Assembly (NCBI GenBank): GCA_963716275.1
Contig: CAVQTC010000002.1
Coordinates: 96,897 to 160,896 of the forward strand
Direction of reading: 5' to 3'
DNA from: an uncultured delta proteobacterium
GTDB taxonomy: Bacteria > Myxococcota_A > UBA9160 > UBA6930
DNA: 64,000 nucleotides
Below the pieces are notes generated by a model. The model worked only from the letters and a program-made list of their open reading frames with translations. It had not been told where the DNA came from and did no database searches. Shown one piece after another: positions 14,459 to 37,300 of the stretch. Positions within the stretch are counted from its first letter, which is position 1. Every line of letters starts with the position of its first letter. Both the position numbers and the translations under genes were made by a program.

Positions 14459-16805
14459 CTACTGCACGTAGCCCAGGCTCTTGAGCCGCTCGATCTCCTC
14501 GCTGCTCATCGCGGCCTCGCCGGCGGTGATGCTCGGCAGGCGGAGCTTCGCGGTCTCGGCGCGCCAGGCAGAGAGCTGGGCGCGCAAGCGCTCGACGACG
14601 TCGGGATGCGCGGCGGCGACGTCGTGCGCGTCGAGGCGGTCGGAGCGCGCGTCGTAGAGCTCGACGGCCGGCCGGTCCGCGCCCTGCGAGCTGTTCTCGA
14701 TCAGCTTCCAGCCCTCGGCCTCGATGGCGGTGCTCTCGCGGTCCGTCCAGGGCGGAGCACTCAGGTCCATGCGGTGCTCCGAGATCGCTGCGCGCGCCGG
14801 CCAGAGGCCCGGCGCGTCCTTCGCGAGGAGCGGCGCCAGGCTACGGCCCTGGAGCGGCGCTTGCGGGGCGATGCCCGCGAGCTCGAGCAGCGTCGGCATC
14901 ACGTCGATGCTCTCGACGGTCTGGTCGACGCTGCGGCCGGCGGGGATGCGGCCGGGGCTCCAGAAGAGAAGGGGAACGCGCGTCACCTCGCCGTACACGG
15001 TGCGCCCGTGAAACGACGCGCCGTGCTCCTGGAATTCCTCGCCGTGGTCGCTTGCGAACGCGACGAGGGTTCGCTCCGAGAGTCCCAGCTCCCCGATGCG
15101 CTCGAAGACGCGCGCGATCTCCTCGTCCATCGCGCGGATCGAGCCGTCGTACCACGCGCGGTCCACCGCCAGGTAGCCCTCGCGCGGGATGCCCGAGGCG
15201 GCGAGCTCGCTCGCGAGGGGCATCCCGAACGCGCGCATCAACGGGTGCGCGATGAACTTGCGGATGCGCGCCTGCTCCTCGGTGTGACGCGCACACTCAG
15301 CAGCGCTCGCGAAGCGTGTGTCGTAGGGGGCCAACGGGCGGTAGGGGCTGTGCGGGTCCGTGACGTGGAGGTACACGAAGAACGGCACGTCGCGATGTTC
15401 GTCGAGCCAGGGGAGCAAGCGATCGACCTGGGCGCGCGCCGTCTTTGCCGACTCGGCCTCCGGCAGCGAAGCCGACTCGTGGAACTCCTCGAAGCCCTGC
15501 TCGAGGTGCGTGAGCTTGCCGACGAAGAAGTTCGCACTGAGCGAGAGCGTGGCGAAGCCGCCGTCGCGGAAGGCCTCGGCGAGCGTGTGCGCCTCGTCGG
15601 GCAGTCGGTCGGCGAAGCTGCGGATGCGGTGCGAGCTCGGGTAGAGGGACAGCAGGTTCGAGGTCATCGAGACCTTGGTCCAGCCGGCCTGGGAGACGGC
15701 GTCGCGGAAGAGCGTGCCCTCCTGCGCCATGCGGCGCAGCATGGGTGCGGTCTCGCGCTCGTAGCCGTAGGCGTCGAGGTGATCGCTGCGCAGCGTGTCC
15801 GCGAGGATCACGACCACGCCCTGCAGCCCCGGGCGAGGGAGGGCGCTCCGCACCACGGGGGAGCCCCAGAAGCCGATCGTTCCGGGTTGCTCGGCGGCGA
15901 GGGAGAGCGCGAGCTCGACGGGCTGGCCCGCGAAGCGCGCGAGGTCCACGCGCGCGGGCTCCCAGCGAGCGCTCGTCGTGACGGTGCGCTCGAGCAGCTG
16001 GGTCTCCACGCCGCCCGCTCGCGCGAGCACGCGGAAGCGCACGGGCTCCTCCGCGAGCGTGCCGAGCGCGAGGTCGAGCCACGCGTCCGGTGGCACCGTC
16101 GATCGGGAAGCGCAACGTCTCGGGCGAGCGCGCGACGAGCGTCTCGCGGTAGATGTCGGAGAGGCCGTGCCAGCCGGGACCCGAGGGCACGCTCGCCATG
16201 CGCTCCGTCTCGAACACGATGCGCACGGACTCGATCGCGAAGCTCGCGTTGGCGGCGTCGGTCGGCTCCAGATAGATCTCGCGAATGCCGTCGGCCCCGA
16301 TCGGGAACAGCGGCTCGAGCGTGTAGGTGCGGAATGCGTCGCCGGGCACGATCGGGCCGCCGATCGGCCAGAGCAGCGGAGTCCCCGCGAAGGGATCGTC
16401 GGCTCCCGCGCCGGGGGCGCTCCGCAGCTCGAGGGCGACATTCGCGCCCGCCGAGGCCCGCATGCGCAGCTCGATCGCGTGCACAGCGTCGCCGCGCCCG
16501 GCCTCTCGGGGAAGCGAGAGGCGGAGCTTGGGCTCGCCCGTCGTGGAGCGGCCGGTGAGCTTCCCGTCGACGACCCGGACATCGGCGACGCCCGGGCCTG
16601 CGACGAACGCGGGCGGCGGCGCAGCGTCGAAGCGGACCTCGGTTCGCGGAGGCGTCGGGGGCGTGGGCAGCGCGGTGCTCGACGTGCTCCGGGGCAGAAC
16701 GGTCGACCAGTCGAATGGCGCGGGGCGCTCGGGCTTGCGGCGCCGGGCCGCCGCAGCTGTGAGCGAGAGCGCAAGGAGCGCGAGGAGGACGAGCCGAAGG
16801 GTCAC
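14459..16805 (-). CDS. sulfatase (arylsulfatase-like) with a long N-terminal secreted extension; frameshift near 16100
   Basis: Sulfatase core ILADTLRSDHLDAYGY...FFVYLHVTDPHSPY...FASDHGEEF lies in ORF 14459..16774. The N-terminal signal/TM VTLRLVLLALLALSLTAAAA lies in the frame of ORF 15297..17270. The GTG start overlaps the MDR stop. Confidence 0.8.
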
Positions 16806-17809
16806 GCGGGATCCGCGCTCACGCGGATCATGCGCTTGCCCCGGTTCTCGCCGGCGAGGAGGCCGACGAGGCCGCGCGGTGCGTTCTCGAGGCCGTCGAT
16901 CACGTCCTCCACGACGCGGAGCTCGCCGCTCGTCACCCACGCCGAGAGGTCGCGCTCCGCGTCCGCGTCGCGATCCGCGAAGTCCATCACCAGGAAGCCT
17001 TCCATGCGCAGGCGCTTCACCACGAGGAGCCCGGGTACACCGGCCGGGCTCTTGGGCGCCGCGACGTCGTACTGAGAGACAGCGCCGCAGCACGAGATGC
17101 GGCCGTGGAGCTTCATCGCGAACAGCGCGGCCTGGAGGATCGCGCCGCCGGTGTTGTCGAAGTAGACGTCGATGCCGCCGGGGGCGACCCGCTTCAGCGC
17201 GGCAGCGAGGTCCTCGTTCCTGTGGTCGATGCACGCGTCGAAGCCGAGCGCGTCGACCACCCAGGCGCACTTCTCCTTTCCACCCGCCACGCCGATCACG
17301 CGGGCGCCCTTGATCTTGCCGATCTGCCCGACGAGCGAGCCGACGGCTCCGCCCGCAGCCGAGACGAGCAGCGTCTCGCCGGGCCGGATGCCGGGGACGT
17401 TCAGCAGGCCGTGATAAGCGGTCTTGCCCGTGACGCCGAGGACCGAGAGCTGATGCGTGAGCGGGCGGTGCGGCCCGCAGCGCGCGAGGCCCCGCGCATC
17501 CACGGCGGCGTACTCCTGCCAGCCGAGCTCGCCCATCACGAGGTCGCCCACCGCCACGCGCGGCGAGCGTGTCTCGACCACTCGGCCGATGCCGTAGCCG
17601 GACATCACCTCGCCGGCATTGAGAGCCGCGCGGTACGTCGCGCCCTGCATCCAGGCGCGGTTCGCGGCGTCCTGGGAGAGCAGCAGCGTGCGCAGCAGCG
17701 CCTGCCCCTCGGCGGGCGCCGGCATCGGCGCGCGGCGCTGCCCGAAGTGGGACTCCTGGAGCGGCCCGCGCGGGCGCTCCATCAAGAGAATCTGCAGGTT
17801 GTCGGCCAT
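16802..17809 (-). CDS. MDR-family NADPH:quinone oxidoreductase / zinc-type ADH-like protein
   Basis: ORF 16802..17809 with GETLLVSAAGGAVGSLVGQIGK and a Rossmann GxGxxG. Confidence 0.85.
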   Translation of the reverse strand: MADNLQILLMERPRGPLQESHFGQRRAPMPAPAEGQALLRTLLLSQDAANRAWMQGATYRAALNAGEVMSGYGIGRVVETRSPRVAVGDLVMGELGWQEYAAVDARGLARCGPHRPLTHQLSVLGVTGKTAYHGLLNVPGIRPGETLLVSAAGGAVGSLVGQIGKIKGARVIGVAGGKEKCAWVVDALGFDACIDHRNEDLAAALKRVAPGGIDVYFDNTGGAILQAALFAMKLHGRISCCGAVSQYDVAAPKSPAGVPGLLVVKRLRMEGFLVMDFADRDADAERDLSAWVTSGELRVVEDVIDGLENAPRGLVGLLAGENRGKRMIRVSADPA

Positions 17810-17890
17810 CCCTTGTCCCTCCTTGCGGAGCGCAGCCTACACCGCTGTCACGCCGAGCGGGGAGGCGGCATCCTTCCGTCGGAGGCGAGC

Positions 17891-18259
17891 ATGGGTGAGA
17901 TCCACGGCATCTACGAGGTCGCCATCAAGGTGCGAGACCTCGCGCGTGCGGAGGCCTTCTACCGCGACGTGCTGGGCCTGGAGATCGGGCTGCGCGATCC
18001 CCGCCGGCCGTGGATCTTCCTGCGCGCCGGCGCGGGCATGGCGGTGCTGCAGGAGGATTCCGGCCCGTGGCCCCAGCAGCACTTCGCGTTCACGACCGAC
18101 GAGGCGGGGCTCGCGCGCGCCGCGTCGGCCCTTCGCCAGCGCGGCGTCGCGGTGTCGGGCCCCGTGAGCCTCGATTGGATCCCGGCGAAGTCGATCTACT
18201 TCGCGGATCCAGACGGCCACGATCTGGAGATCTGCGCTCCGCTCAGCCGCGGCTCGTGA
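17891..18259 (+). CDS. VOC/glyoxalase-bleomycin-resistance family protein
   Basis: MGEIHGIYEVAIKVRDLARAEAFYRDVLGLEI...FADPDGHDLEI, with GGAGGCGAGC upstream as RBS. Confidence 0.8.
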   Translation: MGEIHGIYEVAIKVRDLARAEAFYRDVLGLEIGLRDPRRPWIFLRAGAGMAVLQEDSGPWPQQHFAFTTDEAGLARAASALRQRGVAVSGPVSLDWIPAKSIYFADPDGHDLEICAPLSRGS

Positions 18260-19665
18260 GCTTCGAGGCGGCGTCCGCGACGACCGTTCCCTCGAAGAAG
18301 CGCGGATTCGTCTCGCCGAACAGCCGCACCGCATTCTCGAACGCGAACGCCCGAAAGCTCGCCTCGTCGACGAGACCGTGCTCGACGAGCTCCCAGGCCT
18401 CCGGGAGCACGTCGCGGAAGTCGGGCACGTCCCAGTGTCCGATGTCCGAGGCGAACATCGCGTTCAGGCGCGTCGCGTAGGGGTTCACGCGCGTCGTCGA
18501 AGGCGAAGGCGTTGGTGGGATCGTCCGCCTCGCAGCCGAAGAAGTACTGGCGCGCGAAGACGTCGCGGACTTGCTCGGGGCGCTCGATGCCCGCCGCCGC
18601 GAACTCGTCGAGCGCAGCGCGGTTCTCGCTCGGGTCGGAGAGGAAGCCGAGCGCCTCGTCGAGCCGCCCCAGCCGCTCCCGGAAGCTCGCAGGCCCGTCC
18701 GCGCTCGATCCAGCGCGCGAGCGCGGCGCGATCGAGATTTGCCGGGTCGTAGTGCGCGATCGCCTCGCGGTTGCGCTTCTCGTAGTGCCCCAGGATGTCG
18801 GCGAAGAGCGTGCACGCCCACGCGACGCCGCCCTCGAGGAAGGCGAAGCGGAGCTCCGGGAAGCGCACCGGCACGCCGCCGAAGAAGAGCGAGCGCGCGA
18901 TCGGCCTCGCTCCCCGCCGCGAAGTTCCCGATGTGGTTCGCCACGTAGTTGGTGGGCGAGTTGCGGCTTCCGAAGCCGATCCCCGTCGAGTGGAAGGTGG
19001 GTGAGACGCCGAGCTCGCAGCAGCGCCGCCAGAGCGGGTCGTAGTCGTGGGCGCTGTCGAGCCCCAGGCCGTCCACCCAGCGCGCTGCGCGCACCCCCTC
19101 GTGCCCGGGCACCGCGCGCAGCACGAGGCCGCCCATCAGGAAGGCGCGCAGGCCGAGCTCCCGCACCGCGTGCTCGAGCTCGGCGATCGCCTCCTCCGGC
19201 GTGAAGGTCGGGATGATGCCCGACCGGGAGCAGGCGGTCCCGATAGGGGCCGTAACACTCGGCGTAGTAGCGGTTGCAGGCGCGCGCGAGCGCGCGGCGC
19301 AGCTCGTCGTCGTCGAGCGCCATCGGCACCAGCCCGAGCGTCGGATAGAGAATCGCGAGATCGATCCCGAGCTCGTCGAGCCGGGAGTAGAGGAGCTTCG
19401 GGAGGGTGGCCGTCGCGCGGTCGAGGGTGTTGCGGGCCGGGAGCCCCCACCAGCCGTGGCGCGCGAGGCCGAGGGAGCGCTTCGTGGCGACGTCGAGACC
19501 GCGCGTCGCGGCGGCCCCGCGCAGCACGCCCTCGAGGCGCTTCCCCACGTCGGCGCCGGCGAGCTCGACCACGAAGTCGCGCACCAGCGGGATGAACTCG
19601 AGCAGGTGGCCGTCGGCGTCGAGGACGGGGTGGCCCAGTCGCGAGCGGATTCCGGCGGCGTCCAC
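18243..19665 (-). CDS. amidohydrolase-2 family (PF04909-like) protein, multiply frameshifted
   Basis: Segments across the minus-strand frames read [56 protein letters not shown], and C-terminal [45 protein letters not shown] precedes the GTG start at 19665. Confidence 0.65.
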
Positions 19666-19725
19666 GGCGCTCCTCCGCCGCGAGTATGGCGTCGGGCTAT
19701 CCTGCGCGCCCTCGGAGGAATCGCA

Positions 19726-20500
19726 ATGAGTCTCGCGGGACGCGTGGCGCTGGTGACGGGCGGGAGTCGGGGGATCGGGCGCGGGATCGCCCTCGCGCTG
19801 GCCGAGGACGGGGCCGACATCGCCGTCAACTACCGGCGCGACGAGACCGCGGCCAAGGAGACCGTGGCCGCCATCGAGAAGCTCGGGCGGCGCGCGCGCG
19901 CGTACCAGGCCTCGATCGACTCCTACGAAGACGACCAGCGCATGGTCGAGGCCGCGGTCGCGCGACTTCGGCTTCGTCGACATCCTCGTGAACAACGCCG
20001 GCATCGCGAGCCGCGGCAACACCGTCGAGAAGACCGATCCCGCCGAGATGGAGCGCGTGGTGCGCACGCACGCCTTCGGCGCCCACCACCTGTGTCAGCT
20101 CGTGCTGCCGAGCATGAAGACGCGGCCGCGCGGCGACATCGTGATGATCTCGAGCGTGGCGACCCTCCACTACGGCGGCGGCGGCGCCCCCTACAACATG
20201 GGCAAGGCTGCCCTCGAGGCGCTGGCGTTCACGCTCGCCAAAGAAGTCCGCCACCGCGGAATACGCGTGAACGTCGTGGCCCCCGGGCTGGTCGAGACGG
20301 AGATGGGGCGCCGGCTCGCCAAGGCGACGCAAGGCGTGCAAGACCTCCGCGAGCTCGACGCAGCGATGCCGTTCGGACGGGTGTGTCAGCCCGAAGACGT
20401 GGCCAACGCGGTGCGCTTCCTGGTCTCGGAGCGCGGCTCCTACATCACCGGCGAGAAGATCAACGTCTACGGCGGCGGGCAAGAAGCGCGGAGGAGCTGA
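19726..20500 (+). CDS. SDR family oxidoreductase, with a frameshift near 19970
   Basis: [34 protein letters not shown]..., then NNAGIASRG...[11 protein letters not shown]...[11 protein letters not shown] in ORF 19988..20500. GGAGGA RBS. Confidence 0.8.
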
Positions 20501-22502: not shown

Positions 22503-23502
22503 GTGCGCGCAGCGCGCGCTGCTTTGCTCGCGCTCGCGCTGTCGCTCGCCCCGCAGATTGCGGTCGCGGTCGGCACCGCCGCCGGCACGAGCATCAGCAA
22601 CACCGCCAGCGTCACGGCGGACGTGGGCGGGACCTCGGTCAGCGCGAGCAGCGCCGCGAGCGTGGTCGTGGTCGCCGAGCGGATCGACGTCGACGTGAGC
22701 CTGCTCAGCGTCGGCAACGTGCTGACGACCTCGCCGGCGACAGGGCAGGTCCTCACCTACCGCGTCACCAACACGGGCAACGGCATCGACTCGTTCGCCC
22801 TGACCGGCGACAGCACGCTGGTCGGCGACGACTTCGACCCGGTGCTCGGCAGCATCTACCTCGACGCGAACGCCAACGGCATCTACGACGCCGGCGTCGA
22901 CACGCTCTACCAGCCCGGCGTCAACGACCCGCAGCTCGACGCGAGCGTGCCCACCGCCGACGACGTGGTGGTGTTCGTGCTCAACGACATCCCCGCCGCT
23001 CTCCCGAGCGGCCAGCTCGGCGCGAGCCGGCTGCGCGCGGCCTCACGCACGACGACCGGCGCTCCCGGCAGCGTGCTGGCCGGAGCGGGCGACGGCGGGA
23101 CGGACGCCATCGTCGGGCTCTCGGGCGGCGACGACGAGGACCAGGGCCTCTATCAGGTCTCCACCGTCACCCTCGCAGTCGCCAAGTCCTCGAGCGTGCT
23201 CGACGCCTTCGGCGGCACGCAAGCGATCCCCGGCTCGACGATCACCTACACGCTCGCCGCGACCGTGAGCGGCACGGGCACCGCCGCGCGCCGTGAGCGT
23301 GAGCGACGTGATCCCCGCCAACACGACCTACGTGCCCGGCTCGCTGACGCGCAACGGGTCGCCGCTCACCGACGCGAGCGACGCGCCCACCGACGACGCG
23401 GACTTCAACGTGACCACGCCCAACGGAATCACCGTGGGGCTCGGGAATCTGCCGGCCGGGGGGCCGGCCGAGACGATCACCTTCCAGGTGACGATCAATT
23501 AG
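22503..23502 (+). CDS. secreted DUF11/TIGR01451-type repeat-domain protein A, with a frameshift near 23280
   Basis: Signal peptide (VRAARAALLALALSLAPQIAVA), then GTSISNTASVTADVGG, VLTYRVTNTGNGIDSFALTG, IYLDANANGIYDAGVDT, and C-terminal ...TITFQVTIN in ORF 23293..23502. Confidence 0.6.
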
Positions 23503-23512
23503 GGAGGCATAC

Positions 23513-23998
23513 ATGAAGCGATGGGTCCGACCCTGCGCGGCGCTGGTCGCCGCGCTGCTCGGCGCCGCGGGCGCGGCCGCCGAGACCGGCAAGCTCGAGC
23601 TCCACGCGCGCGCGGAGAAGCGCGTGGCCGTGGCGCTGCCCGACGGCACCACGAGCGAGCAGTTCGTGCCGATCGGGAAAGTCGTGCCGGGCGACGTCGT
23701 CGCCTACACGATCGACGCCCAGAACGTCTCCGGGAAGAACGCGGACGCGGTGGTGATCACCGATCCGATTCCCACTGAGATGGAGTACGTCTCCGCCGAC
23801 CCGGCGGGCGCCGAGCTCCTGTTCTCGGTGGACGGCGGCTTCAAGTTCGACCGCCCCGAGAACCTGTACGTGACGGCACAGGACGGCACGCGCCGCCTCG
23901 CCAGCGCCGGCGACTACACCCACATCCGCTGGGTGTTCGCCGCTCCGTTCGCACCGGCCGAGCGCCGGTCGGTGCGCTTCCTCGCGAAGCTCGAGTAG
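23513..23998 (+). CDS. secreted DUF11 domain protein B (161 aa)
   Basis: Signal peptide MKRWVRPCAALVAALLGAAGAAA. DUF11-like GDVVAYTIDAQNVSGKNADAVVITDPIPTEMEYV. GGGAGG RBS. Confidence 0.7.
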   Translation: MKRWVRPCAALVAALLGAAGAAAETGKLELHARAEKRVAVALPDGTTSEQFVPIGKVVPGDVVAYTIDAQNVSGKNADAVVITDPIPTEMEYVSADPAGAELLFSVDGGFKFDRPENLYVTAQDGTRRLASAGDYTHIRWVFAAPFAPAERRSVRFLAKLE

Positions 23999-24037
23999 CG
24001 ACGCGGGATTTCCGTGCAACTCAACAAGGAGAACCCC

Positions 24038-25156
24038 ATGCATCGGGAGAACGTGATGCGCGGTGTCGCCAGGGTGGTCCTGGCGTCGCTCGCGCTCGGA
24101 ATTGCAGGCACGCAGGGTGCCAGCGCGGCCGGCACGGATGCCGGCACCGTGGTCAGCAACTCGGCCACGGTCAACTACAACGTCGGGGCGACGGCGCAAG
24201 CGCCGGTCAACTCGCTGGCGGTGACCTTCGTGGTCGACGATCGCGTCGACCTCACGGTGGTCGAGCTGTCGGGCGGCTACACGGCCGTGGCGGCGAACGG
24301 CACCAACGAGGTGCTCACCTACACCGTCACGAACACCGGCAACGGCATCCACGACTTCCTGCTGACGCGGGCGGACAACGCCACCGATCCTTTCGGTGGC
24401 ACGGACAACTTCAACGCCACGCCGGTCAGCATCATCGTGGATAGCAACGCGAACAACGTCTACGACGCCGGGACCGACACGGCGACGTACATCGACGAGC
24501 TCGGCAACGGCCAGGCTCGCGCGGTGTTCGTGCTGAGCAACATCGGCGCGCAGGCGAGCGGCGACATCTCGGCCGTCACGCTGACCGCGCAGGTCGCGCA
24601 GGGCGGCACGGCCGGCGTCCAGGGCGCGGCGATCGCCACGGACGACGCCGCGGTCGCGGACACGGCGGGCACGGTGCAGATCGTGTTCGCGGACGCCACG
24701 GGCGACACCGACGCGCTGCACGACGGTCGCCACAGCGACACCGACGCCTACCTGGTCGGCGCCGCCACGGTGACGGTGACGAAGACCTCGGCCGTGATCC
24801 TCGACCCGATCAACGGTGCGCTGAACCCGAAGGCGATTCCGGGCGCGACGGTGGAGTACACCGTCACGGTCTCGAACACGGCGGGTTCCTCGGCGACGGC
24901 CACCAACGTGGTCATCACCGACAGCCTCGCCGCCGAGATCACTGCAGGCAGCGTGGCCTTCGGGACGAACGGCTACGGCGCTGCGCAGGGCATCCAGGTC
25001 ACGGCGCCGAACATCAACGGCGGGGTGGCCACCAACCTGAGCAACTTGGCCGATGCGGACCAGGGCGACTTCTCGGCGAACGTGGTGACCGTCAACGGCA
25101 TCACGCTGGCGCCGAACCAGAGCGCCACGGTCAAGTTCCAGGTCGTGATCCAGTAA
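24038..25156 (+). CDS. secreted DUF11/TIGR01451-type repeat-domain protein C (paralog of A)
   Basis: AAGGAGAA RBS. Signal peptide, then GTVVSNSATVNYNVG, VLTYTVTNTGNGIHDFLLT, IIVDSNANNVYDAGTDT, VEYTVTVSNTAGSSATATNVVITD. Confidence 0.7.
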   Translation: MHRENVMRGVARVVLASLALGIAGTQGASAAGTDAGTVVSNSATVNYNVGATAQAPVNSLAVTFVVDDRVDLTVVELSGGYTAVAANGTNEVLTYTVTNTGNGIHDFLLTRADNATDPFGGTDNFNATPVSIIVDSNANNVYDAGTDTATYIDELGNGQARAVFVLSNIGAQASGDISAVTLTAQVAQGGTAGVQGAAIATDDAAVADTAGTVQIVFADATGDTDALHDGRHSDTDAYLVGAATVTVTKTSAVILDPINGALNPKAIPGATVEYTVTVSNTAGSSATATNVVITDSLAAEITAGSVAFGTNGYGAAQGIQVTAPNINGGVATNLSNLADADQGDFSANVVTVNGITLAPNQSATVKFQVVIQ

Positions 25157-25161
25157 CACCC

Positions 25162-28100
25162 GTGAGCGCACGGCTCACCCTCTCGATGCACGGTCCCCGA
25201 CGGGCCCGCGCGGAGTCCTCGCGACTCCGCGCGCGGCCCGGCCGGGGCTCTCCGTCTTCGCGCTGGGCGAGCCTCCTCTGCGCGTGGCTGGTGGCGGTGC
25301 TCGCGGCCGCCGCCAGCTACGCGCAGACGCCGCCTGGCACGGTGATCACCAACACCGCGCAGGCGGTCTTCACGCCGCCCGGCGGCGTTCCGACCAACGT
25401 CGCGTCCAACGCGGACACGATCACCACGGGGGGCCAGCGCACGCCCTCCGCGACCCAGCTCTTCCACTACGCGCCGGGCAGCGCCGGCGCGATCTCGACC
25501 GCCGTGGGCGCCGGCATGTGCAGCACGAGCGGCGCGGCGGCCGGGCCCTTCGTCGCGACGCCCAATCCCACGAACCTCTCGGGCGGCGCGATCAACCTCG
25601 GCAACCCCGTCGAGCTCCTCGCCGGCGGCGCCTTCCATCAGACCGAGGCGCTGTTCGTGCGCGTGCGCGATCCGGATCAGAATCTCGATCCGCTCAGCGC
25701 CGAGAACGTGCTCGTCTCGCTGGTCTCGGTCACGACCGGCGACCAGGAGTGGATTCGCGTCGCCGAGACCGGCGCGAACACCGGCGAGTTCGTCGGCTAC
25801 CTGATGCTCGGGCCGCCGCCGGCGGTCTCGGGCGATTGCCGCCTCTCCGTCGTCGCGGGCGAGACGTTCCGCGCCGACTACACGGATCCGGCCGACGGCG
25901 CCGACAGCTCGGCGAACGCTGCGCTCGTGGACCCGCTCGGCATCGTCTTCGACAGCCAGACGGGAGCGCCCATCGACGGCGCGAGCGTCACGCTGATCGA
26001 CTCCGCGAGCGGGCTCCCCGCCACGGTGTTCGGCGACGACGGCGTCTCGAGCTTCCCTGCCACGGTGACCTCGGGCGGCACCGCCAGCGACTCGGGCGGG
26101 ACGCTCTACACCTTCGCCCCGGGCCAGTACCGCTTCCCCTTCGTCGCGCCCGGGCAGCTATCGCCTCCAGATCGTCCCGCCGCCCGGCTACGGCTTCCCG
26201 TCGATCGTGCCGGACGTCGCGCTCCAGCTCCTGCCGGGCGCGCCCTTCGCGCTCGGCCCCGGCTCGCGCGGCAACGACTTCGTCGTGCCGCTCGGCCCCA
26301 TCTTCCAGGTGGACGTGCCCCTCGATGCCGCGGGCACCGGCGCGGGCCTGACGCTCAGCAAGCGCGCGAATCGCGCCACCGCCGGCATCGGCCAGTTCGT
26401 CCAGTACGTGCTCGAGCTCTCGGCGCCGGGCGGCAGCGCGGGCAACCCGCTCGTCCTCGACGACCGGCTGCCGCGCGGCTTCCGCTACGAGGAGGGCTCG
26501 CTGCGCCTCGATGGCCAACCGGCGCCGGAGCCCACCATCAGCAACAAGGGTCGGCGCCTCACGGTGCCGCTGCCCGCACTCGCGCCGGGCGGGCGCGTCG
26601 AGATCCGCTACGTGACGCGCATCGGCTCGAGCGCGACCGGCGGCGAGGCGCGCAACGACGCGATCGTGCGCGGCGGCGTGATCGCCTCGAACCCCGCGCG
26701 CGCGAGCGTCCAGGTGATGGCGGATCTCATCACTCAGCGCGCCACCCTGATGGGCCGCGTGATGGAGGGCAGCTGCGACTCGCCGGCCCTCGACGAGCAC
26801 GCGGGGGTCGCGGGCGTGCGCGTATTCCTCGAGGACGGCACCTACACGGTCACCGACGACCAGGGCCGCTTCCACTTCCCGCTGGTGTCGCCCGCGACGC
26901 ACGTCGTCCAGCTCGACACCCAGACGCTGCCCGACGGCCTCTACGCGATGCCCTGCAGCAGCAGCGACTTCGCGGATCGACCCTACTCCCAGTTCGTGGA
27001 GCCCCAGGCGGGAGCGCTCTGGCGGACCGACTTCTTCGTCGGCCGCATGGCGAGCTCGCGCGGCCTCCACCAGCGCCTCACGGTCACGCCTGGCGAGGGC
27101 AAGCAGACGCTCGAGCTGCGCGTCGAGGCGGGCGGCGCTGCGCTCGAGGGGTTGGCCGCCACCCTGATGCTTCCGGACGGCGTCACGCCGCTGCCCGGTA
27201 CGCTGGTCGTCGACGGCCCCGGCGCGGCGCTCGATGCGACCAGCCCCACGCCGCTCGTGCGCGCGCCCACGCTCTCGCCGGGCCAGGCGGTGACGCTGCG
27301 GCTCGACGTGGCGGGCGCGCCGACGCAGCAAGTGAGCTCCTTCGCGCGCGCAAAGCGCGAAGGCGGCGGCGGCGTCCAGACGCCCGTGGCGACCGCCACG
27401 CTCGCGGAGGCCCACACCTTCCTGCAGAGCGCGAGCTGGGAGAACGAGCCCGCCGCGGAGAAGCTCGCCGAGGAGGCGCCGCCCGAGGCCGCCTTCGACG
27501 GGGCCTGGCTCGCGCAGGCCGCCCCGGCCACGCGCTGGCTCTACCCGGACGCCGGCGCCATCCCGAAGATCCCGTCCGTCAATCTCGGCGTCCAGCACGA
27601 CCCGGCGCTGCGCGTGCGGCTCTTCCGCAACGGCAAGCTCGTCGACCCGCTGAACTTCGAGGGCACCGAGCGGAACCCCGCGAAGACGGTCGCGGTGAGC
27701 CGCTGGCGCGGCGTCGATCTCGAGGAAGGGCCCAATACCTTCAGCGCCGAGCTGCTCGACGAGGGCGGTGGGCTGCGCGAGCGCCTCCAATACATGATCC
27801 ACTACTCGGGCCCGCCGGTGCGCGGCGAGCTGATGCCGAGCCTGTCGCACCTGGTGGCCGACGGCCGCGAGACGCCCGTGATCGCGGTGCGGCTCTTCGA
27901 CCGCTGGGGCCGGCCGGTGCGCGAGGGCATCAGCGGCCCGCTGCGCGTCGCGCCGCCGCACCAGGCGAAGGAGACGGTCGAGGCCGCGCGCGAGCGCCAG
28001 CTCGCGATGCCGGATCTCGGCGCCACGAGCTTCGTGGTCGGCCGCGGCGGCATCGCGCGCATCGAGCTCGAGCCCACCACGAACGTCGGGCGCTTCGCGG

Positions 28101-30646
28101 TCACGCTCCAGCTCGCGCACGACGCGCAGCAGGAGATCGATGGTTGGCTCTCGCCGGGCGAGCGCGAGTTCACCCTGGTCGCGCTCGGCACCGGGACGCG
28201 CGGCTTCGGGACGGGGCCCGCGAACCTCTCGGGCGGCGCGAGCGGAGCGCCCGAAGGAAGTGGCTCGGACGGCCGCGCGGCGTTCTTCGCCAAGGGCACG
28301 CTGGGCGATGGCTGGACCCTCACCGGCGCCTACGACACCGACGCCAAGCAGACGCAGCCGGGCGATCGCCTGGGCCGCCACCTGGACCCCGACGAGCACT
28401 ACATGCTCTACGGCGACGGCACCCAGGAGGGCTACGAGGCCCCGACCTCGGACGGCGTCTACCTGAAGGCCGAGCGCGAGCGCTTCTACGCGCTCTACGG
28501 CGACTACGAGACGGGCCTCAGCGAGACCGAGCTCGCGCGCTACAGCCGCGTGCTGACCGGCGTCAAGACCGAGTACTTCGGCGACCGCTTGCGCTGGAAC
28601 GGCTTCGGCACCGACTCCGGCCAGCAGTACGTGCGCGACGAGCTGCGCGGCAACGGCACGAGCGGCCTGTATCGGCTCTCGCGCGTGGGCGCGATCCCGA
28701 ACAGCGTGCGCGTGCGCCTGGAGACCCGCGATCGCTTCCGGCCCGACCGCGTGCTGCGCAGCGAGCCGCTCATGCTCGACATCGACTACGACATCGACTA
28801 CGCCGGCGGGGCGCTCCACTTCCGCAAGCCGATCCCCGGCCGCGACGAGCTGCTGAACCCGATCTTCATCGTGATCGAGTACGAGGTGGACGGCGCGGGC
28901 TCCTACTCGGGCGGTGGCCGCGTGGCGGGCCGGTTCTTCCGGGGCGCGCTCGAGCTCGGCGCGAGCGGCATCCACGAAGGCCGCGGCGACTTCGCGGGCG
29001 ACCTGGTGGGTCTCGACGCGACCTACGACGTCGACGAGGCGACCAGCCTCCATGCCGAGTTCGCCGGCTCGGACAACGACGATTTCGGCGGCAGCGCGCG
29101 CGGCGCAGGCTGGCTGCTCTCGGCCGAGCACCGCACCGAGGCGCTCGAGCTGGCCGCCTACGCCCGCGAGCAGGAGGCCCAGTTCGGCCTGGGCCAGCTC
29201 TCGGCGGTGGATCAGGGCATGCGCCGCTACGGCGTGGACGGGCTCTACCATCTGAACGAGCGCTGGAGCGTGAAGGGCAGCGCGTTCCGCGACGAGCGGC
29301 TCGGCGCCCCCGACGAGCGGACGCTGGCGGAGACGGTGCTCGAGTACGACGAAGCCCAGCGCGGCGCTCATCTGGGCGCGCGCTATGTGCGCGACTCGGC
29401 GCCCCTCGACTCCGCGAACGCCGCGCAGCTTCTGCTGGGCGGCCACTACGCTTTCCTCGACAACCGGCTCACGCTGCGCGCGGCGAGCGAACTGGGCTTC
29501 GGCTCGGAGGGCGCGCACGGCGACTACGCCAACCGCGTCGCCGGCGGCGCCGACTGGCGGCTCACCGATTGGCTCACGCTGTTCGGCGAGCACGAGCTCA
29601 CCTTCGGCGACACGCACGAGGGCCAGGACACGCGCGCCGGCGCAACCGTCACGCCCTGGGAGGGCGGCCAGATCTCCACGACAGTGGGGCAGAACGCGCG
29701 CGAGTACGGCCCGCGCACCTACGCGAACCTGGGCCTCTCGCAGCACTGGAATCTGTTCCAGAGCTGGGGCTTCGACTTCATGGTGGACCGCTCCCAGACG
29801 CTCTCGGGAGGCGGCAGCGAGCCGCTCGATCCGGACCTGGGCTTCGACTCCGGGCCGCCCGCCGACGACTACACGGCGGTGTCGGTCGGCGCGGCGTTCA
29901 CGAAGGACGACACGGCCGTGCAGAGCCGGGCGGAGCTGCGCCTCGGCGACCTCGAGGACCAGTGGAACGTGCTGCTCGGCGTGCTCCGCGAGCACGAGCG
30001 CACCTCCTACGCGGGCCGCCTCGAGCTCTGGAACAAGGACGGCAGCGGCCCGACCTCGAGCCAGGAGGACCTGTACGCGCTGCGCTTCTCGCTCGTGCAC
30101 CGGCCGCTCGACACGCACTGGATCGTGCTCGAGCAGACCGACTTCGAGCTGGGCCGCAACGAGGGCGGCGGCCTCGACAGCCGCGAGCGCAGCTTCGTGA
30201 ACCACTTGAAGGTCAACTACCTCTACACGCAGCAGAGCCAGGTCTCGCTGCAGTACTCGGCGAAATGGGTGGGCGACACGATCGACGGGCGCGACTACCG
30301 CACGCTCGGCCACTTGTTCGGCGTCGAGGCGCGCCACGACCTGACCTCGCGCTGGGACGTCGGCCTGCACGCGCGCTTCCGCCAGCTGACGGGCGGCGAC
30401 GCCGGCGACCAGAACCTCTCGCTCGGCCTCTCGATCGGCCGCGTGCTCTACAAGAACGTGTGGGCGAGCGTCGGGTACAACTTCTCGGGCTTCCAGGACG
30501 ACCAGTTCTCGAAGAGCGACTACACGGCCGAGGGTCCGTTCCTGCGCATGCGCGTGAAGGTCGACCAGGACGCGGTGCGCGACCTGCTCCAGTGGCCGCC
30601 GCGCATGACGCGCCGCAACGACGTCGGCATCGCCCAGCAGCCTTAG
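25162..30646 (+). CDS. giant (about 1830 aa) secreted protein: N-terminal DUF11 plus CnaB/SdrD-B-like domains, C-terminal ~1000 aa predicted outer-membrane beta-barrel; frameshift near 26160
   Basis: Signal LCAWLVAVLAAAASYA. GTVITNTAQAVFTPPGG. IDGASVTLIDSASG...GQYRFPFVAPGSYRLQIVPPPGY. GQFVQYVLELSAPGG...LVLDDRLPRGFRY. VRVFLEDGTYTVTDDQGRFHF. The C-terminus is full of alternating amphipathic strands (LDIDYDIDYAGGALHF, IFIVIEYEVDGAG, LKVNYLYTQQSQVSLQYSAKW, WASVGYNFSGF). Confidence 0.7.
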
Positions 30647-32498: not shown

Positions 32499-33243
32499 TC
32501 AGCGCCCGCCCGTTACGTCGAGGATGGCGCCCGTCACGTAGCCGGCCTCGGGGGAGAGCAGGTACAGGATCGCTCGGGCGATCTCGTCCGCGCTGCCGCC
32601 TCGGCCCATCGGGACGCTTGGCGCGAGCCGCGCGAGACGCCCGGGCTCGCCGCTCGCGGCCTGCATGTCCGTGTCGATCAGCCCGGGCCGCACGGCGTTC
32701 ACACGAATGCCTTCGCCCGCGACCTCGCGCGCGAGGCCGACGGTGAAGGTGTCGATCGCGCCTTTCGAGGCCGCGTAGTCGATGAACTCGAACGGGAGAT
32801 CCCAGCCGGGCCGCCGCCGAAGAGAGGTTCACGATCGCTCCGCCTTTGCCCCCGTGGAGCGTCGACATGCGTTTCACGGCCTCCCGGGCGCACAGGAACG
32901 ACCCGATCACGTTCACGCCGAGCACGCGCGCGAGCCGGTGCGCGTCGATGCCCTCGAGCCGGGTCTGCGGCTCGAGCACGCCCGCGTTGTTGACCAGGGC
33001 GTCGAGGCGCCCGAGCTCGCGGTCGAGCCGCGCGAACAGCTCTACGACCTCCTCCTCGCGCGAGACGTCCGCGCGCAGGGCGAGCGCGCGCCCGCCGGCG
33101 CGCTCGATCTCGTCCACCACCCGCGCCGCGGCCTCGCCAGCGCTCCGGTAGCAGAGCGCGACGGCATAGCCGCGCGCGGCCGCCAGCCTCGCGGCGGCGG
33201 CGCCGATCCCGCGGCTCCCTCCAGTCACGAGCGCGATCGGCAC
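32499..33243 (-). CDS. SDR family oxidoreductase, with a frameshift near 32800
   Basis: [30 protein letters not shown]...NNAGV in one frame. C-terminal NAVRPGLIDTDM...ITGAILDVTGGR in ORF 32499..32702. Confidence 0.75.
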
Positions 33244-33253
33244 GGCCGGCCCC

Positions 33254-34333
33254 TCAGCTCGCTCGGCGCGAGGCGAGCAGCTCGGCCAGGCAGGTCGTGG
33301 CCGGATTCTCGAGCCAGATGCGCTGGTCGGCCGGGAGTCGGCCGCGCGCCACCCAGCGGTTCATCACGCGCACCACGATCGCGCAGTAGCGCGCGGCCGC
33401 GAGCACCTCGTGGTAGTACGTGTCGCCGATCGCGACCCCCGCGCAGCGCTCGTAGTGAGCGCGCTGCTCGTCGCGCGTGGGCTCGCCCGGAAGGCGCGCC
33501 ACGCCTGCCGACTCGTGGCTCCAGCGGTCGAACATGAGCCACCAGCCGAGATCGAGGGCGCGCGGGCCGATCGCGACGTTCTCGAAGTCGGTGACGCACA
33601 CGCAGCGAAAGTCGCGCCAGATCATGTTGCCGAGCCGCGCGTCGCCCCAGGAGAGCACGAGCTCGCCGTCCTCGGGGAGGTGGCGGTGGAGCCAGGCGAA
33701 GCCCTCCGCCAGGACGGGGTGGACGCGGCCCGCGAGCTCGCGCTGCGCGAACGCCTCCCAGAGCGCGAGCTGACGCGCGGTGCCGGGCCGCTCGCCCGCA
33801 GGCGTGAGCCAGGCGAAGCCAGCCTTGCGGAAGTCGACCGCGTGCAGCTCGGCGAGCACGCGCAGGCCGTCCTCGACCATGCGCCGGCGCTCGTCGGGCT
33901 GGGCCTCGGCGAAGAAGCCGCCCGCGGCGTAAGAGGGGCTCACGCTCGGCACCAAGCCTTCGACGAACTCCATCACGAAGAACGGCGCGCCGAGCAGCGC
34001 TGGCTCCGCCTCGAAACCGACCAGGCCCGCGAGGGGCACGCGGCCGTGCGCGGCCAGCGCCGCCATGGTGCGGAACTGGATGTCCACCTCCACGTCGAGG
34101 CCGGGCGCTTGTTGGGGATAGACCGAGGGCTCCGCGGTCTCGGCCCGCAGCACGAAGCGCTCGCCGCTCTCTCCCTGCGCGCGCTCGACGCTCGCTTCGA
34201 AGATCCACGTCTCGGCGGAGTAGCCCCCCGAGAGCTGGCGCGGCTCAGACACCGCCGACACCGCGCGCGCATTCGGGAGGCGACGCGCGAGCCACGCCGC
34301 GAGCTCGTCGCGCCCGCGCTCGTCCAGCGGCAC
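33254..34333 (-). CDS. phosphotransferase family protein (APH-like), start uncertain
   Basis: ...FVLRAET...PFFVMEFVEG...LVLSWGDARLGNMIW...CVTDFE. The GTG at 34333 lies 4 nt after the carboxylase stop. Confidence 0.7.
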   Translation of the reverse strand: MPLDERGRDELAAWLARRLPNARAVSAVSEPRQLSGGYSAETWIFEASVERAQGESGERFVLRAETAEPSVYPQQAPGLDVEVDIQFRTMAALAAHGRVPLAGLVGFEAEPALLGAPFFVMEFVEGLVPSVSPSYAAGGFFAEAQPDERRRMVEDGLRVLAELHAVDFRKAGFAWLTPAGERPGTARQLALWEAFAQRELAGRVHPVLAEGFAWLHRHLPEDGELVLSWGDARLGNMIWRDFRCVCVTDFENVAIGPRALDLGWWLMFDRWSHESAGVARLPGEPTRDEQRAHYERCAGVAIGDTYYHEVLAAARYCAIVVRVMNRWVARGRLPADQRIWLENPATTCLAELLASRRAS

Positions 34334-34337
34334 TGCG

Positions 34338-37300
34338 CTACCAGGTGTCGACGCAGGGGCGCTTCTTCCCCGTGCGCGGCGCGGGCGGCGGCGAGGCCAA
34401 GAGCGCGCGCGTGATCCAGCGCCGCGTACTCGGCGGGGTCGATCACGTCGTCGATCTCGAAGTGCGAGGCGGTGCTCACGGCCTTGCCGTGGTCGTACAT
34501 GCGCTTCACCATCTGGTCGAAGAGCGCCTTGCGCTTCTCGGGATCGCTCTCCGCGGCGAGCTCGTTGCGATAGCCGAGCTTGACGGCGCCCTCGAGGCCC
34601 ATGCCGCCGAACTCGCCGGTGGGCCACGCGATGGTGAAGACCGGCGCCTTGAAGCTGCCGCCCGCCATCGCCTGGGCGCCGAGCCCGTAGCCCTTGCGCA
34701 GCACGATCGTCACGAACGGGACGCGTGAGGCTTGCCGCCGATCACGAACAGCCGCGAGGCGTGGCGCACGAGCGCGGTCTTCTCGACCTCGGGGCCGACC
34801 ATGATGCCGGGCGTGTCGCACAGGAACACGACCGGGATGTCGAAGGCGTCGCAGAGCTGCAGGAAGCGCGCGGCCTTGTCGGCGGCCGTCGCTGTCGATC
34901 GCGCCCGCCAGATGCGTCGGGTTGTTGGCGACGATGCCGATCGGTCGGCCCTCGACGCGCGCCAGCGCGGTGATCATGCCGAGCCCGAAGCCGCGCCGGA
35001 GCTCGAGCACGCTCCCGGTGTCGGCGAGCGTCGCGATCACGCTGCGCACGTCGTAGATGCGCAGGCGGTTCTCGGGGATCGCGCGGCGCAGCAGGCGCTG
35101 GTCGGCGCACTGACCAGCTGCGCGAGCGGACCCTGGAAGTAGGCGAGGTACTGCTTCGCGACGGCGACCGCCTCGGCCTCGTCGCGCACCGGCACGTCGA
35201 CCACGCCGTTGCGCACCTGGACGTGCGAGCGGGCCGACCTCCTCCGGGCGGAAGACGCCGAGCCCGCCGCCCTCGATCATCGCGGGCCCGCCCATGCCGA
35301 TGTTCGAGCGCTCGGTGGCGATCACGACGTCGCAGCAGCCGAGAAGCGCGGCGTTGCCCGCGAAGCAGCAGCCGCGACGTGATCGCCGACCAGCGGCACC
35401 AGGCCCGAGAGCTGGCCCCGAAGTACTGGAAGGCGAGGCAGTCGAGGCCGGCGACGCCGACGCCGTCGGTGTCGCCGGGCCGCCCGCCGCCGCCCTCGGT
35501 GAAGAACACCACCGGCAGGCGCCATGCGCTCGGCGAGCTCGAACAGGCGGTCCTTCTTGCGATGGTTCTGCTGGCCCTGGGTGCCGGCGAGCACCGTGTA
35601 GTCGTAGGACATCACGACGCAGCGCGAGCGCTCGGCGGCGAACAGCGCGCCGTTCACGCTGCCGATGCCGGCGATCAGGCCGTCGGCGGGCGTGCGCGCG
35701 ATCAGGTCCTCGAGCGTGCGGCGCCGGCGCTGCGCGGCGATCACGAGCGGCCCGTACTCGACGAAGGTCCCCGGATCGCAGAGGTCGTCGACGTTCTCGC
35801 GCGCGGTGCGCTGGCCGGTCTTGCGCCGCCGCGCCACCGCCTCGGGCCGGCTCGCGTCGAGCGTCGATCGCGTGGCGCTCGAGCGACCTCCGCGAGGTCG
35901 GGGCGGATGCGGGCGAGGTCCGCTCCTCGGCGCGCGCGGCGCCTGCGGCCTCGACCTCGGCCTCCTCGAGGAAGACGAGCGGGTGCCCCTCGAAGACGGT
36001 GTCGCCGCGCGCGACGGCGACGCCCTGCACGATCCCGCTCGCGGCGGCCGCGATCACGTGCTCCATCTTCATCGCCTCCATCACGAGCAGCGGCTGGCCG
36101 GCGGCGACCCGCGTCGCCCGCGCTCACGTCCACCGACACGATCGTGCCCTGCAGCGGCGCGCGCACCGCGAGCGTGCCCTCGGGCACCGCGACGTCGGCG
36201 GACGCCAGGATCGCCATTTCGGCGGGCTCCGCCGCCGCCGACTCGGCGGCGGCCGCGCCCTTCCCGTAGTCGAGCACGGCGAGCGGATCGCTGCTGGCGA
36301 GGCGCGCACCAGCGAGCCGCGGCCTTCGCTCGGCTTCAGCTCGCTCGCGAAGAAGAGCTGCGGATGCTCGCTTGCCGCGAGCAGCTCGGCCGCGTGCTCG
36401 TCGACGAAGCGGGTGTGCACCCGCCCCGCCGCGAAGTCGGGTGGCGCGAGCAGCGCCTGCAGGAAGGGCGCGTTCGTGGCCACGCCCTCGATGCGCAACT
36501 CGCAGAGCGCGCGGTACGCGCGCGCCAGCGCGTCCGCGAAGCGTCGGGCGAGTGCACGATCACCTTCGCGAGCAGCGAGTCGAAGCGCGGATTCGTGGTG
36601 TAGCCCGCGTAGCCGCGCGTGTCGATGCGCACGCCCGGGCCCGAGGGCGGCTCGAAGGCGGTGAGCGTCCCCCCCGTCGGCCGCGCGCTCCCGTCCGCTC
36701 CCATCTTCTCGGTGTTGACGCGCAGCTGGATCGCGAAGCCGCGCGGCGACGGGATCTGCGCCTGCTCGAGGCCGAGCTGCGCCAGGCTCTGCCCTGCGCG
36801 AGCTCGAGCTGCGCCTGCACGAGGTCGAGCCCGGTCACCGCCTCGGTGACGGTGTGCTCGACCTGGAGGCGCGCGTTGGCCTCGATGAAGGCGAAGCGGC
36901 GCCCCTGGTCGGCGTCGACCAGGAACTCGACGGTGCCGAGCCCGCTGTAGGACGCGGCCCGGCCGAGCGCCAGCGCGGCCGCGAGAAGCTCTTCGCGCAC
37001 GCCGGGATCGAGCGCGGGGCTCGGCGCGATCTCGACGATCTTCTGGTTGCGGCGCTGGAGCGTGCACTCGCGCTCGCAGAGGTGGGCGACCTCGCCGGCC
37101 GTCGCCCACGATCTGCACCTCGATGTGGCGCGCGCGCGGCAGGAGCTCCTCGACGTAGACGTCCGCGACGCCGAAGGCCGCCTTCGCCTCGGAGCGGCAG
37201 CGCGCGTAGGCCTCCTCGAGCTCCTCGGCGCGCGCGACGACGCGCATGCCGCGCCCGCCGCCGCCCGCGATCGCCTTGATCATCACGACGGCGCCGGGCG

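Follow-up and report, generated by a model that had tools for sequence, protein, structure and literature searches.

The Pfam domain DUF11, since renamed CLIPPER, is a CnaA-like domain in which Lys, Asp and Asn form an intramolecular isopeptide, and in the solved CLIPPER domain 9IFR the isopeptide Asn, Asn806, lies in a strand beyond strand F (PMC12617251). Isopeptide bonds also occur between subunits. Archaeal threads carry inter-subunit isopeptide bonds and have a cap protein encoded beside the subunit (PMC9715654, PMC11821415), and they offer a precedent for donor-strand fibres that are built without a chaperone and joined by inter-subunit isopeptides (PMC9715654). As for the outer membrane, the largest barrel known is at present given as SprA, with 36 strands (bioRxiv 10.64898/2026.03.07.710327). 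Here, we focus on four adjacent genes, A to D, in a 64,000-nucleotide stretch of DNA (hereafter the window; positions 96,897 to 160,896 of contig CAVQTC010000002.1, assembly GCA_963716275.1) from an uncultured delta proteobacterium placed in Myxococcota_A. Genes A, B and C encode secreted immunoglobulin (Ig)-like proteins, and gene D encodes a far larger protein with a predicted C-terminal beta-barrel.

We hold with high confidence that these genes are a real and self-contained module and that D is a giant outer-membrane barrel protein. The module is probably a system, uncharacterised to date, for the barrel-mediated export or anchoring of Ig-like subunits; no description of it was found in the literature on DUF11 with ushers or barrels, on TIGR01451 or on intermolecular isopeptides in diderms. 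An initial annotation of this DNA, made from the sequence alone, had proposed an undescribed way of exporting or anchoring a pilin-like fibre. The module behind that proposal is real and conserved and its barrel stands, while the fibre itself is inferred. The same annotation regarded isopeptide and CnaB-type folds as a Gram-positive hallmark, a view that does not hold for DUF11/CLIPPER domains, which are documented, and indeed widespread, in Gram-negative fibrillar adhesins (PMC12617251).

The barrel protein and its conserved neighbours

The C-terminal half of D was modelled with AlphaFold2 (residues 628-1827, from an alignment of 60 homologues; predicted local distance difference test score (pLDDT) 80.5, predicted TM-score 0.72). 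The model begins with a variable segment that is disordered in part, continues with two Ig-like domains modelled with confidence and ends in a near-unbroken succession of beta hairpins, the C-terminal ~840 aa taking the form of a beta-barrel. The strands show alternating hydrophobicity and are joined by short turns, with short loops on both sides. It had been foreseen that this region might model as a soluble sandwich or solenoid; it models as a membrane barrel instead. The best structural matches found with Foldseek are all outer-membrane barrels, MtrB first and SprA among the top; SusC, FhuA, AlgE, LptD and SlpA are also among them. All of them align with high root-mean-square deviations and low TM-scores, the D barrel is larger than each, and matches to ushers are no better than those to unrelated barrels. 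Neither Pfam nor NCBIfam holds a family that matches the C-terminal ~900 aa of D, and a search of the PDB sequences with the barrel profile returned no barrel relatives; its only matches were OmpA domains, which homologues in the alignment had brought in. As modelled, the C-terminus of D is a membrane barrel of no known family.

Between two sets of strands the barrel carries a small conserved insert, flanked by the most conserved motifs of the family, DELRGNGTSG and NPIFIVIEYE (used as scan patterns); its position in the sequence of D resembles that of the usher plug. The last strand holds the near-invariant motif GYNFxGF, which looks like a beta-signal for the machinery of beta-barrel assembly (BAM). 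The initial annotation had placed this motif (VGYNFSGF) at the very C-terminus. The motif does occur here and hardly varies across the family, but the protein continues beyond it for about 50 conserved residues. This tail has the pattern D.DFS...YTA.GP...FR.K.DQ, with one strand and two short helices in the model, and could be periplasmic or folded back into the lumen.

Upstream of the barrel, an arm of Ig-like and transthyretin-like domains takes up the N-terminal ~930 aa of D. The arm had been described as DUF11 plus two CnaB/SdrD-B folds. Its CarboxypepD_reg domain is clear (Table 1), whereas the DUF11 domain stays below threshold (TIGR01451 19.4 bits; Pfam DUF11 20.8 bits, residues 396-504) and the SdrD_B match is weak. 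In 39 of 65 full-length D homologues (60%) the arm also contains an OmpA-like peptidoglycan-binding domain, whose end lies ~1,090 residues from the C-terminus and immediately upstream of the barrel-proximal Ig pair; examples are residues 825-939 in L019 and residues 394-496 in P0026. This domain (PF00691) is absent from the D of the window, where a low-confidence Ig-like segment and linker stand instead (27053-27532). Since most D homologues carry a peptidoglycan-binding domain here, at least the barrel-proximal part of the arm is probably periplasmic and not displayed.

Among the representatives of 50%-identity clusters, 2,979 are related to the barrel region (E <= 1e-30 for 1,104). Their lengths are 1,600-3,000 aa, all have the barrel at the C-terminus, and nearly all come from uncultured genomes. 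Scanning the species genomes of GTDB yielded at least 557 carriers, of which the best 80 are all metagenome-assembled genomes and belong to Steroidobacteraceae, Thiotrichaceae, Gallionella/Sideroxydans, Zetaproteobacteria, Desulfuromonadales/Geobacter, Myxococcota, Nitrospirota and Lentisphaeria. The family is thus not specific to Myxococcota, where a search for the arrangement had first been suggested: Gamma-, Beta-, Zeta- and Alphaproteobacteria, Desulfuromonadales, Nitrospirota and Lentisphaeria have it as well. The nearest relatives of the window genes are found in Myxococcota and 'Deltaproteobacteria' genomes. One close relative (L009, CAZCTH010000008.1; 61% identity in D) sits in a bin labelled 'uncultured Spirochaetales', a label that points to mis-binning or horizontal transfer.

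The four genes travel together. Among the 29 informative loci, those with at least 4.2 kb of sequence upstream of D, 28 keep the order A-like, B, C-like, D, in many phyla and with gaps of 4-40 nt. The homologues of A to D are thus co-localised, where scattered homologues would have spoken against the initial annotation, and since the arrangement recurs in dozens of unrelated genomes it is not due to chance. Together with the modelled barrel, this conserved order bears out the view of the cluster as a functional module. All-against-all clustering of open reading frames (ORFs) in 85 loci showed that only the A/C and B families are conserved around D; no other conserved neighbour turned up, whether a gene for a chaperone, sortase or peptidase or one for cargo.

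A fifth gene of ~400-630 aa is found upstream of the A-like gene in many related loci (L001 5279-7039, L008 574-2394 and L009 481-2361 among others), and a few loci (L014, L063, L082 and L083) encode, downstream of D or on the opposite strand, proteins that share its C-terminal domain but are larger, at up to ~1,150 aa. These products are DUF11 proteins with a B-like C-terminal domain that ends on the same type of strand, and they have no N-terminal extension of the kind described below; they may be alternative tip or adhesin subunits. No such gene is present in the window. In the related contig L005 a second, partial D-like barrel gene (16161-19415, minus strand) is found a few kilobases downstream of the cassette, beside a gene for a 703-aa DUF11/P_proprotein protein, and two or more copies or variants of the system may exist in some genomes.

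Shared extension, truncated domains and possible assembly

Proteins A and C were thought to be paralogues, and BLASTP agrees (35% identity, E 3e-31, with an alignment that reaches the last residue). All three partner proteins pass the curated TIGR01451 cutoff of 24 bits (A 37.5, B 38.8 and C 33.5 bits), as the initial annotation would have it, and B also passes Pfam DUF11 (29.6 bits; cutoff 24.6 bits). The signal peptides proposed for A to D are likewise present, each with a hydrophobic core and an AxA-type cleavage site as judged by eye; in the model of C a helix occupies residues 2-23. That model, an AlphaFold2 monomer, reaches a pLDDT of 90.5, and Foldseek relates it to generic tandem Ig-like adhesin and pilin folds; C has at least 1200 homologues. 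A conserved Asp/Asn-rich loop is common to the N-domains of A and C; it reads LDANANGIYDAGVDT in A (22800-22900) and VDSNANNVYDAGTDT in C (24440-24500) and resembles the calcium-binding loops of EF-hand or dockerin type. None of A, B and C has a C-terminal sorting signal, and their ends follow a beta strand (…FQVTIN, …FLAKLE and …FQVVIQ).

Directly after the signal peptide, A, C and D have in common an N-terminal extension of ~35 residues with the consensus GT.aGT.I.NtA.v.Y…SN.v, which B is without. In profile-profile comparison (hhalign) the extension of D matches that of A-like proteins at E 3.5e-7 and that of C-like proteins at E 1.8e-5. The homology of D to A and C is confined to its first 31-36 mature residues, and the rest of the D arm is unrelated to both. 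A full A/C-like pilin module at the N-terminus of D, as first supposed, was dropped on this ground, only ~35 mature residues being common; the earlier jackhmmer cross-matches between D and A or C probably came from the DUF11 domains.

The opposite ends of A, B and C are also alike. When aligned by hhalign to the complete DUF11 domain of D, their C-terminal domains all stop at template column 99 of 134. This column lies in the F strand and coincides with the very last residues of the three proteins, so that the G hairpin of ~35 residues is missing. With the Asn strand gone, the intradomain Lys-Asp-Asn triad is incomplete in A, B and C, and B lacks the Lys and the Asp as well. Conservation was counted across 55 loci and, for D, in 72 aligned sequences. 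The first-strand Lys is present in 55 of 55 A-like (Lys228) and 55 of 55 C-like proteins (Lys249), as against 13 of 55 in B. The catalytic acidic residue is Asp in all 55 A-like proteins (Asp269) and Asp in 52 and Glu in 3 of the 55 C-like ones (position 295), as against an Asp in 9 of 55 in B, whose family does not conserve the dyad. An Asn in the extension is found in 40 of 55 A-like proteins, 54 of 55 C-like proteins (Asn41) and 66 of 66 D proteins (Asn64). A candidate Asn in cis, N336, occurs in 12 of 55 C-like proteins, and none in the acceptor part of A-like proteins reaches 90% conservation.

The reading that we favour, if tentatively, is that the self-contained four-gene module builds a stalk or short fibre of Ig-like proteins anchored in the outer membrane. 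A, B and C would be exported, as D is, by the Sec pathway and then joined head-to-tail at or inside the D barrel, a truncated CLIPPER domain in one protein being completed, in the manner of donor-strand complementation, by the N-terminal extension of the neighbouring protein. The most economical order would be B, A, C (possibly repeated) and then the N-terminal extension of D. B, or the product of the fifth gene, would be an acceptor-only distal cap, A and C would be donor-acceptor links, and D would be a donor-only base fused to the barrel. This order is suggested by the numbers, as acceptors with a conserved dyad (A and C) are equal to donors with a strict Asn (C and D). The acceptor Lys and acidic residue of A and C could form spontaneous intermolecular isopeptide bonds with the extension Asn of C and D, which would lock the A-C and C-D joints covalently through Lys and Asn. 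The wide, short-looped barrel would let folded Ig domains cross the outer membrane, with the beta-sandwich insert acting as a gate, and in homologues that have an OmpA-like domain the base would be held to peptidoglycan by it. The tip-like fifth gene of some loci, without the extension and with a B-like end, was counted as favouring a head-to-tail chain, and the role of such a chain would likely be adhesion or matrix attachment.

A more specific form of this proposal has a substantial chance of being right, though we think it less likely than not. The module would then represent a new class of fibre assembly in double-membraned bacteria, made without chaperone or sortase, in which the CLIPPER domain is split between proteins in the manner of SpyTag/SpyCatcher and a covalent B-A-C(n)-D chain passes through the barrel. 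In this form, the hairpins of C and D would supply the missing strand and the Asn to the Lys/Asp domain of the preceding subunit, and the chain would be tethered permanently to a barrel of up to ~38 strands, compared with 36 for SprA, which would rank with the largest known barrels made of a single chain.

Several results weigh against the proposed head-to-tail chain or leave it unconfirmed. When the acceptor of A was joined to its own extension, the Pfam scan rose from 19.3 to 24.7 bits for DUF11, but a reversed control did equally well on DUF7927. Joined acceptor and extension profiles compared by hhalign with the D DUF11 domain gained up to ~5 bits (usually 0-3), which is below the best shuffled control (30 column shuffles and one reversed control). 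In a mean-field direct-coupling analysis of 230 A/C sequences (effective number 158), the extension forms a hairpin of its own, 38-42 with 61-65; its couplings reach the N-domain, and those to the C-terminal domain are not enriched. The AlphaFold2 monomer of C is confident throughout, extension included, and the modelled fold of C may be complete in cis. The barrel's 30-38 strands and the position of its insert are estimates from the secondary structure of the model (DSSP string). Moreover, if the OmpA-like domain is a guide, much of the D arm lies in the periplasm, which complicates the topology of a surface fibre; the chain may be threaded outward or may sit largely in the periplasm or the lumen of the barrel. 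Searches of the PDB sequences found no match with a single chimera and 9IFR at E 0.021 only with a chimera profile. Polymerisation into a fibre and surface exposure are proposals from sequence and models, and we place moderate to low confidence in the specific mechanism of assembly.

The strongest competitor, which we judge unlikely but to be taken seriously, is that D forms a giant pore within a static hetero-oligomeric complex, A, B and C serving as its stoichiometric lumen, plug or cap subunits, and that this pore moves some other large cargo or substrate instead of building a fibre. A wide pore with short loops on both sides and an insert of only ~65 aa needs proteins to occlude it, and sheath-and-core arrangements comparable to this are known from MtrCAB, LptDE and SprA with its plug. 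MtrB is also the best structural match of D. A and C are both kept in nearly every locus, as fixed positions would require, and A, B, C and the parts of D are about equally conserved (35-47% identity), unlike hypervariable exposed pilins; relative conservation gives no signal for surface exposure. Yet no cargo, cytochrome or lipoprotein partner is conserved nearby, no CXXCH motif was seen on reading the A-D protein sequences, and a static complex explains neither the extension common to A, C and D nor the truncated CLIPPER domains nor the orphan Lys/Asp dyad.

It is less probable still that D is self-sufficient, as an autotransporter-like adhesin or as a tether between outer membrane and peptidoglycan like SlpA or OmpM, with A to C co-expressed but physically independent of it. 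Stand-alone adhesins are common among DUF11 proteins (PMC12617251), SlpA is among the structural matches, and the OmpA-like domain in 39 of 65 homologues would suit a tether. This account has to contend with a gene order that stays fixed across phyla at gaps of 4-40 nt, with an extension exclusive to A, C and D, which argues for a physical link, and with a barrel of 30-38 strands, far bigger than an anchor requires.

Features, reading frames and flanking DNA

The four genes lie on the same strand with intergenic gaps of 10, 39 and 5 nt, and the coordinates and gaps given by the initial annotation were all confirmed in the sequence (Table 1). A Shine-Dalgarno sequence, AAGGAG, precedes the ATG of C.

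Table 1. Genes, domains and motifs of the A-D cluster, with positions in the window
Feature	Position	Strand	Remarks
Gene A	22503-23502	+	secreted two-domain Ig-like protein, 333 aa after 1-nt frameshift correction
A signal peptide	22503-22568	+	
A N-terminal extension	22569-22676	+	
A C-terminal truncated CLIPPER/DUF11 domain	23151-23499	+	TIGR01451 37.5 bits
Gene B	23513-23998	+	secreted single truncated DUF11/CLIPPER domain, 161 aa
Gene C	24038-25156	+	secreted two-domain Ig-like protein, 372 aa
C signal peptide	24038-24124	+	
C N-terminal extension	24125-24235	+	
C N-domain	24236-24748	+	carries a D-x-N-x-N-x-x-Y-D motif resembling a Ca loop
C truncated CLIPPER domain	24749-25153	+	
Gene D	25162-30646	+	1827 aa after 1-nt correction; signal peptide, N-terminal extension, arm and giant C-terminal barrel
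D N-terminal extension	25321-25431	+	residues 54-90, AQTPPGTVITNTAQAVF...SNADTITTG; Asn64 in 66/66 homologues
D internal complete DUF11/CLIPPER-type domain	26348-26716	+	residues 396-518, G hairpin included
D CarboxypepD_reg (transthyretin-like) domain	26765-27037	+	residues ~535-625, PF13620 42.6 bits
D variable segment	27053-27532	+	residues 631-790, low-confidence Ig-like domain and disordered linker in the model
Two Ig-like domains abutting the barrel	27533-28117	+	residues 791-985; model positions 164-357, pLDDT >90
Predicted beta-barrel region	28124-30487	+	residues 988-1775; in the model 30 contiguous hairpin strands (1233-1775) and up to 8 more (988-1162)
Small beta-sandwich insert	28649-28843	+	residues 1163-1227, ~65 aa, conserved, between two strand sets
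Last barrel strand with beta-signal-like motif	30458-30493	+	VWASVGYNFSGF; G, N and G invariant, Y and F at least 90%
Conserved C-terminal tail after last strand	30494-30643	+	~50 aa

The window has a G+C content of ~72%, so long spurious ORFs are common and frames need careful reading. As sequenced, A and D are discontinuous ORFs with one 1-nt frameshift each. The frame of A shifts near 23285-23291, and that of D at 26151/26153, with a surplus G within cccgggc; owing to the latter, the public record calls just a 1479-aa ORF at 26207-30646 (P0001, 100% identity). When corrected, the D junction aligns with an intact homologue at 79% identity and zero gaps, and the A junction with the intact L009 homologue at 70% identity and a single 1-residue gap at the frameshift site. 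Elsewhere in the window, between 14000 and 40000, several unrelated genes look split over frames, for example at 19686-20500, 32499-33243 and 33225-36084. One short-chain dehydrogenase matches its profile only from position 77 and a second only at 143-234, carboxyl-transferase and biotin-lipoyl fragments are present, and a frame plot of G+C at third codon positions (GC3) switches frame many times. This suggests frequent indel errors in the assembly of the window. With junctions like those of intact genes and unrelated neighbours that look fragmented too, the frameshifts of A and D look like assembly errors and not decay. That the cassette of this genome is a decaying pseudogene cluster with real frameshifts, as two broken genes out of four might indicate, seems quite improbable to us, given that both sides of each junction are highly similar to intact homologues with no further lesions, that GC3 is still 0.92-0.95 in the stop-to-stop ORFs covering B, C and post-frameshift D, and that the broken neighbours point to assembly indels.

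The genes flanking the cluster are unrelated to A-D and encode a cytochrome P450, short-chain dehydrogenases and a Band 7 protein; the P450 gene lies upstream of A on the opposite strand. Scanning the cluster itself for promoters and terminators proved uninformative.

Comparison with known systems

The subunits of the module resemble the CLIPPER adhesins (9IFR), as A, B and C pass the profiles and the triad Lys and acidic residue are invariant in A and C. In those adhesins, complete tandem domains follow one another in one long chain and are cross-linked intramolecularly. In A to C, in contrast, the domain is single, terminal and cut before the Asn strand, and the sole conserved candidate Asn is found at the N-termini of other proteins. 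Such a truncated terminal form is not described in the survey of the family. Of the hallmarks of sortase-dependent Gram-positive pili, A, B and C have no C-terminal signal of LPXTG type, and no sortase gene was found in the flanks within the window or as a conserved neighbour in related loci.

As for the barrel, D shares with SprA of the type IX secretion system (T9SS) a giant single chain that would be wide enough for folded proteins and that works with separate plug or partner proteins. The two have no sequence similarity and come from different phyla, and in D a long Ig-like arm precedes the barrel. No T9SS components or C-terminal domain signals are found nearby, and no T9SS genes are conserved around D in the 85 loci. 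MtrB of the MtrCAB system has 26 strands and multihaem cytochrome partners, whereas A-D are without haem motifs, show no sequence similarity to it and give no match to the MtrB/PioB porin family. Autotransporters of types Va and Ve were set aside by the initial annotation, and the model agrees, with an estimated 30-38 strands against a 12-strand type; no autotransporter or intimin-type barrel domain was matched by Pfam or NCBIfam in A-D.

With regard to assembly, the archaeal threads (Saci_0406/0405), TasA, bundling pili and tafi all resemble the proposed scheme in having Sec-exported subunits, an N-terminal donor strand and no chaperone. However, these fibres belong to monoderm archaea or Gram-positive hosts and have no outer-membrane component, and they differ in subunit folds and bond chemistry; in A-D we can only infer the mechanism.

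If the proposal is true, there would be a further outer-membrane route for appendages beside chaperone-usher, curli, type IV and type V pili and T9SS adhesins, found mainly in uncultured bacteria from sediment and groundwater and in those that cycle iron or sulfur. Its barrel would match or exceed the largest size known for proteins that BAM assembles. Uncurated AlphaFoldDB predictions are limited to 1,280 residues (bioRxiv 10.64898/2026.03.07.710327), which would exclude these proteins of 1,600-3,000 aa. Diderms would have natural, intermolecularly self-ligating Ig domains of interest to protein engineers, and a function open to testing would be assigned to ~3,000 protein clusters that now go by 'hypothetical', 'OmpA family' or 'DUF11'. 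Even without a fibre, a giant barrel conserved alongside three Ig-like partners makes up an envelope machine that has yet to be explained.

There remains the chaperone-usher pathway, to which the early beta-sandwich insert of the barrel and the domains ahead of it could seem to assign the module as a divergent classical member; this is highly improbable, in line with the initial annotation, as A-D match no usher, PapD-like chaperone or fimbrial-subunit family, none of these is conserved nearby, the estimated strands number 30-38 and not 24, and usher structures match no better than unrelated barrels. The likeness is one of design. Both systems consist of an operon of secreted Ig-like subunits and one large outer-membrane barrel, with periplasmic domains ahead of the barrel and a beta-sandwich early in it. 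In both, the subunit Ig domains seem to be without their last strand and carry a conserved N-terminal extension, and there are acceptor-only (tip-like) and donor-only (terminator-like) members. The differences lie in the parts, as D has no sequence relation to ushers and ~1.3-1.6 times as many strands, the module has no chaperone, its subunits are two-domain CLIPPER/DUF11 proteins, its terminator-like donor is fused to the barrel protein, and a covalent Lys-Asn lock is possible. By analogy, then, the module would work most like a chaperone-usher system, although it fails the features by which that system is defined in sequence.

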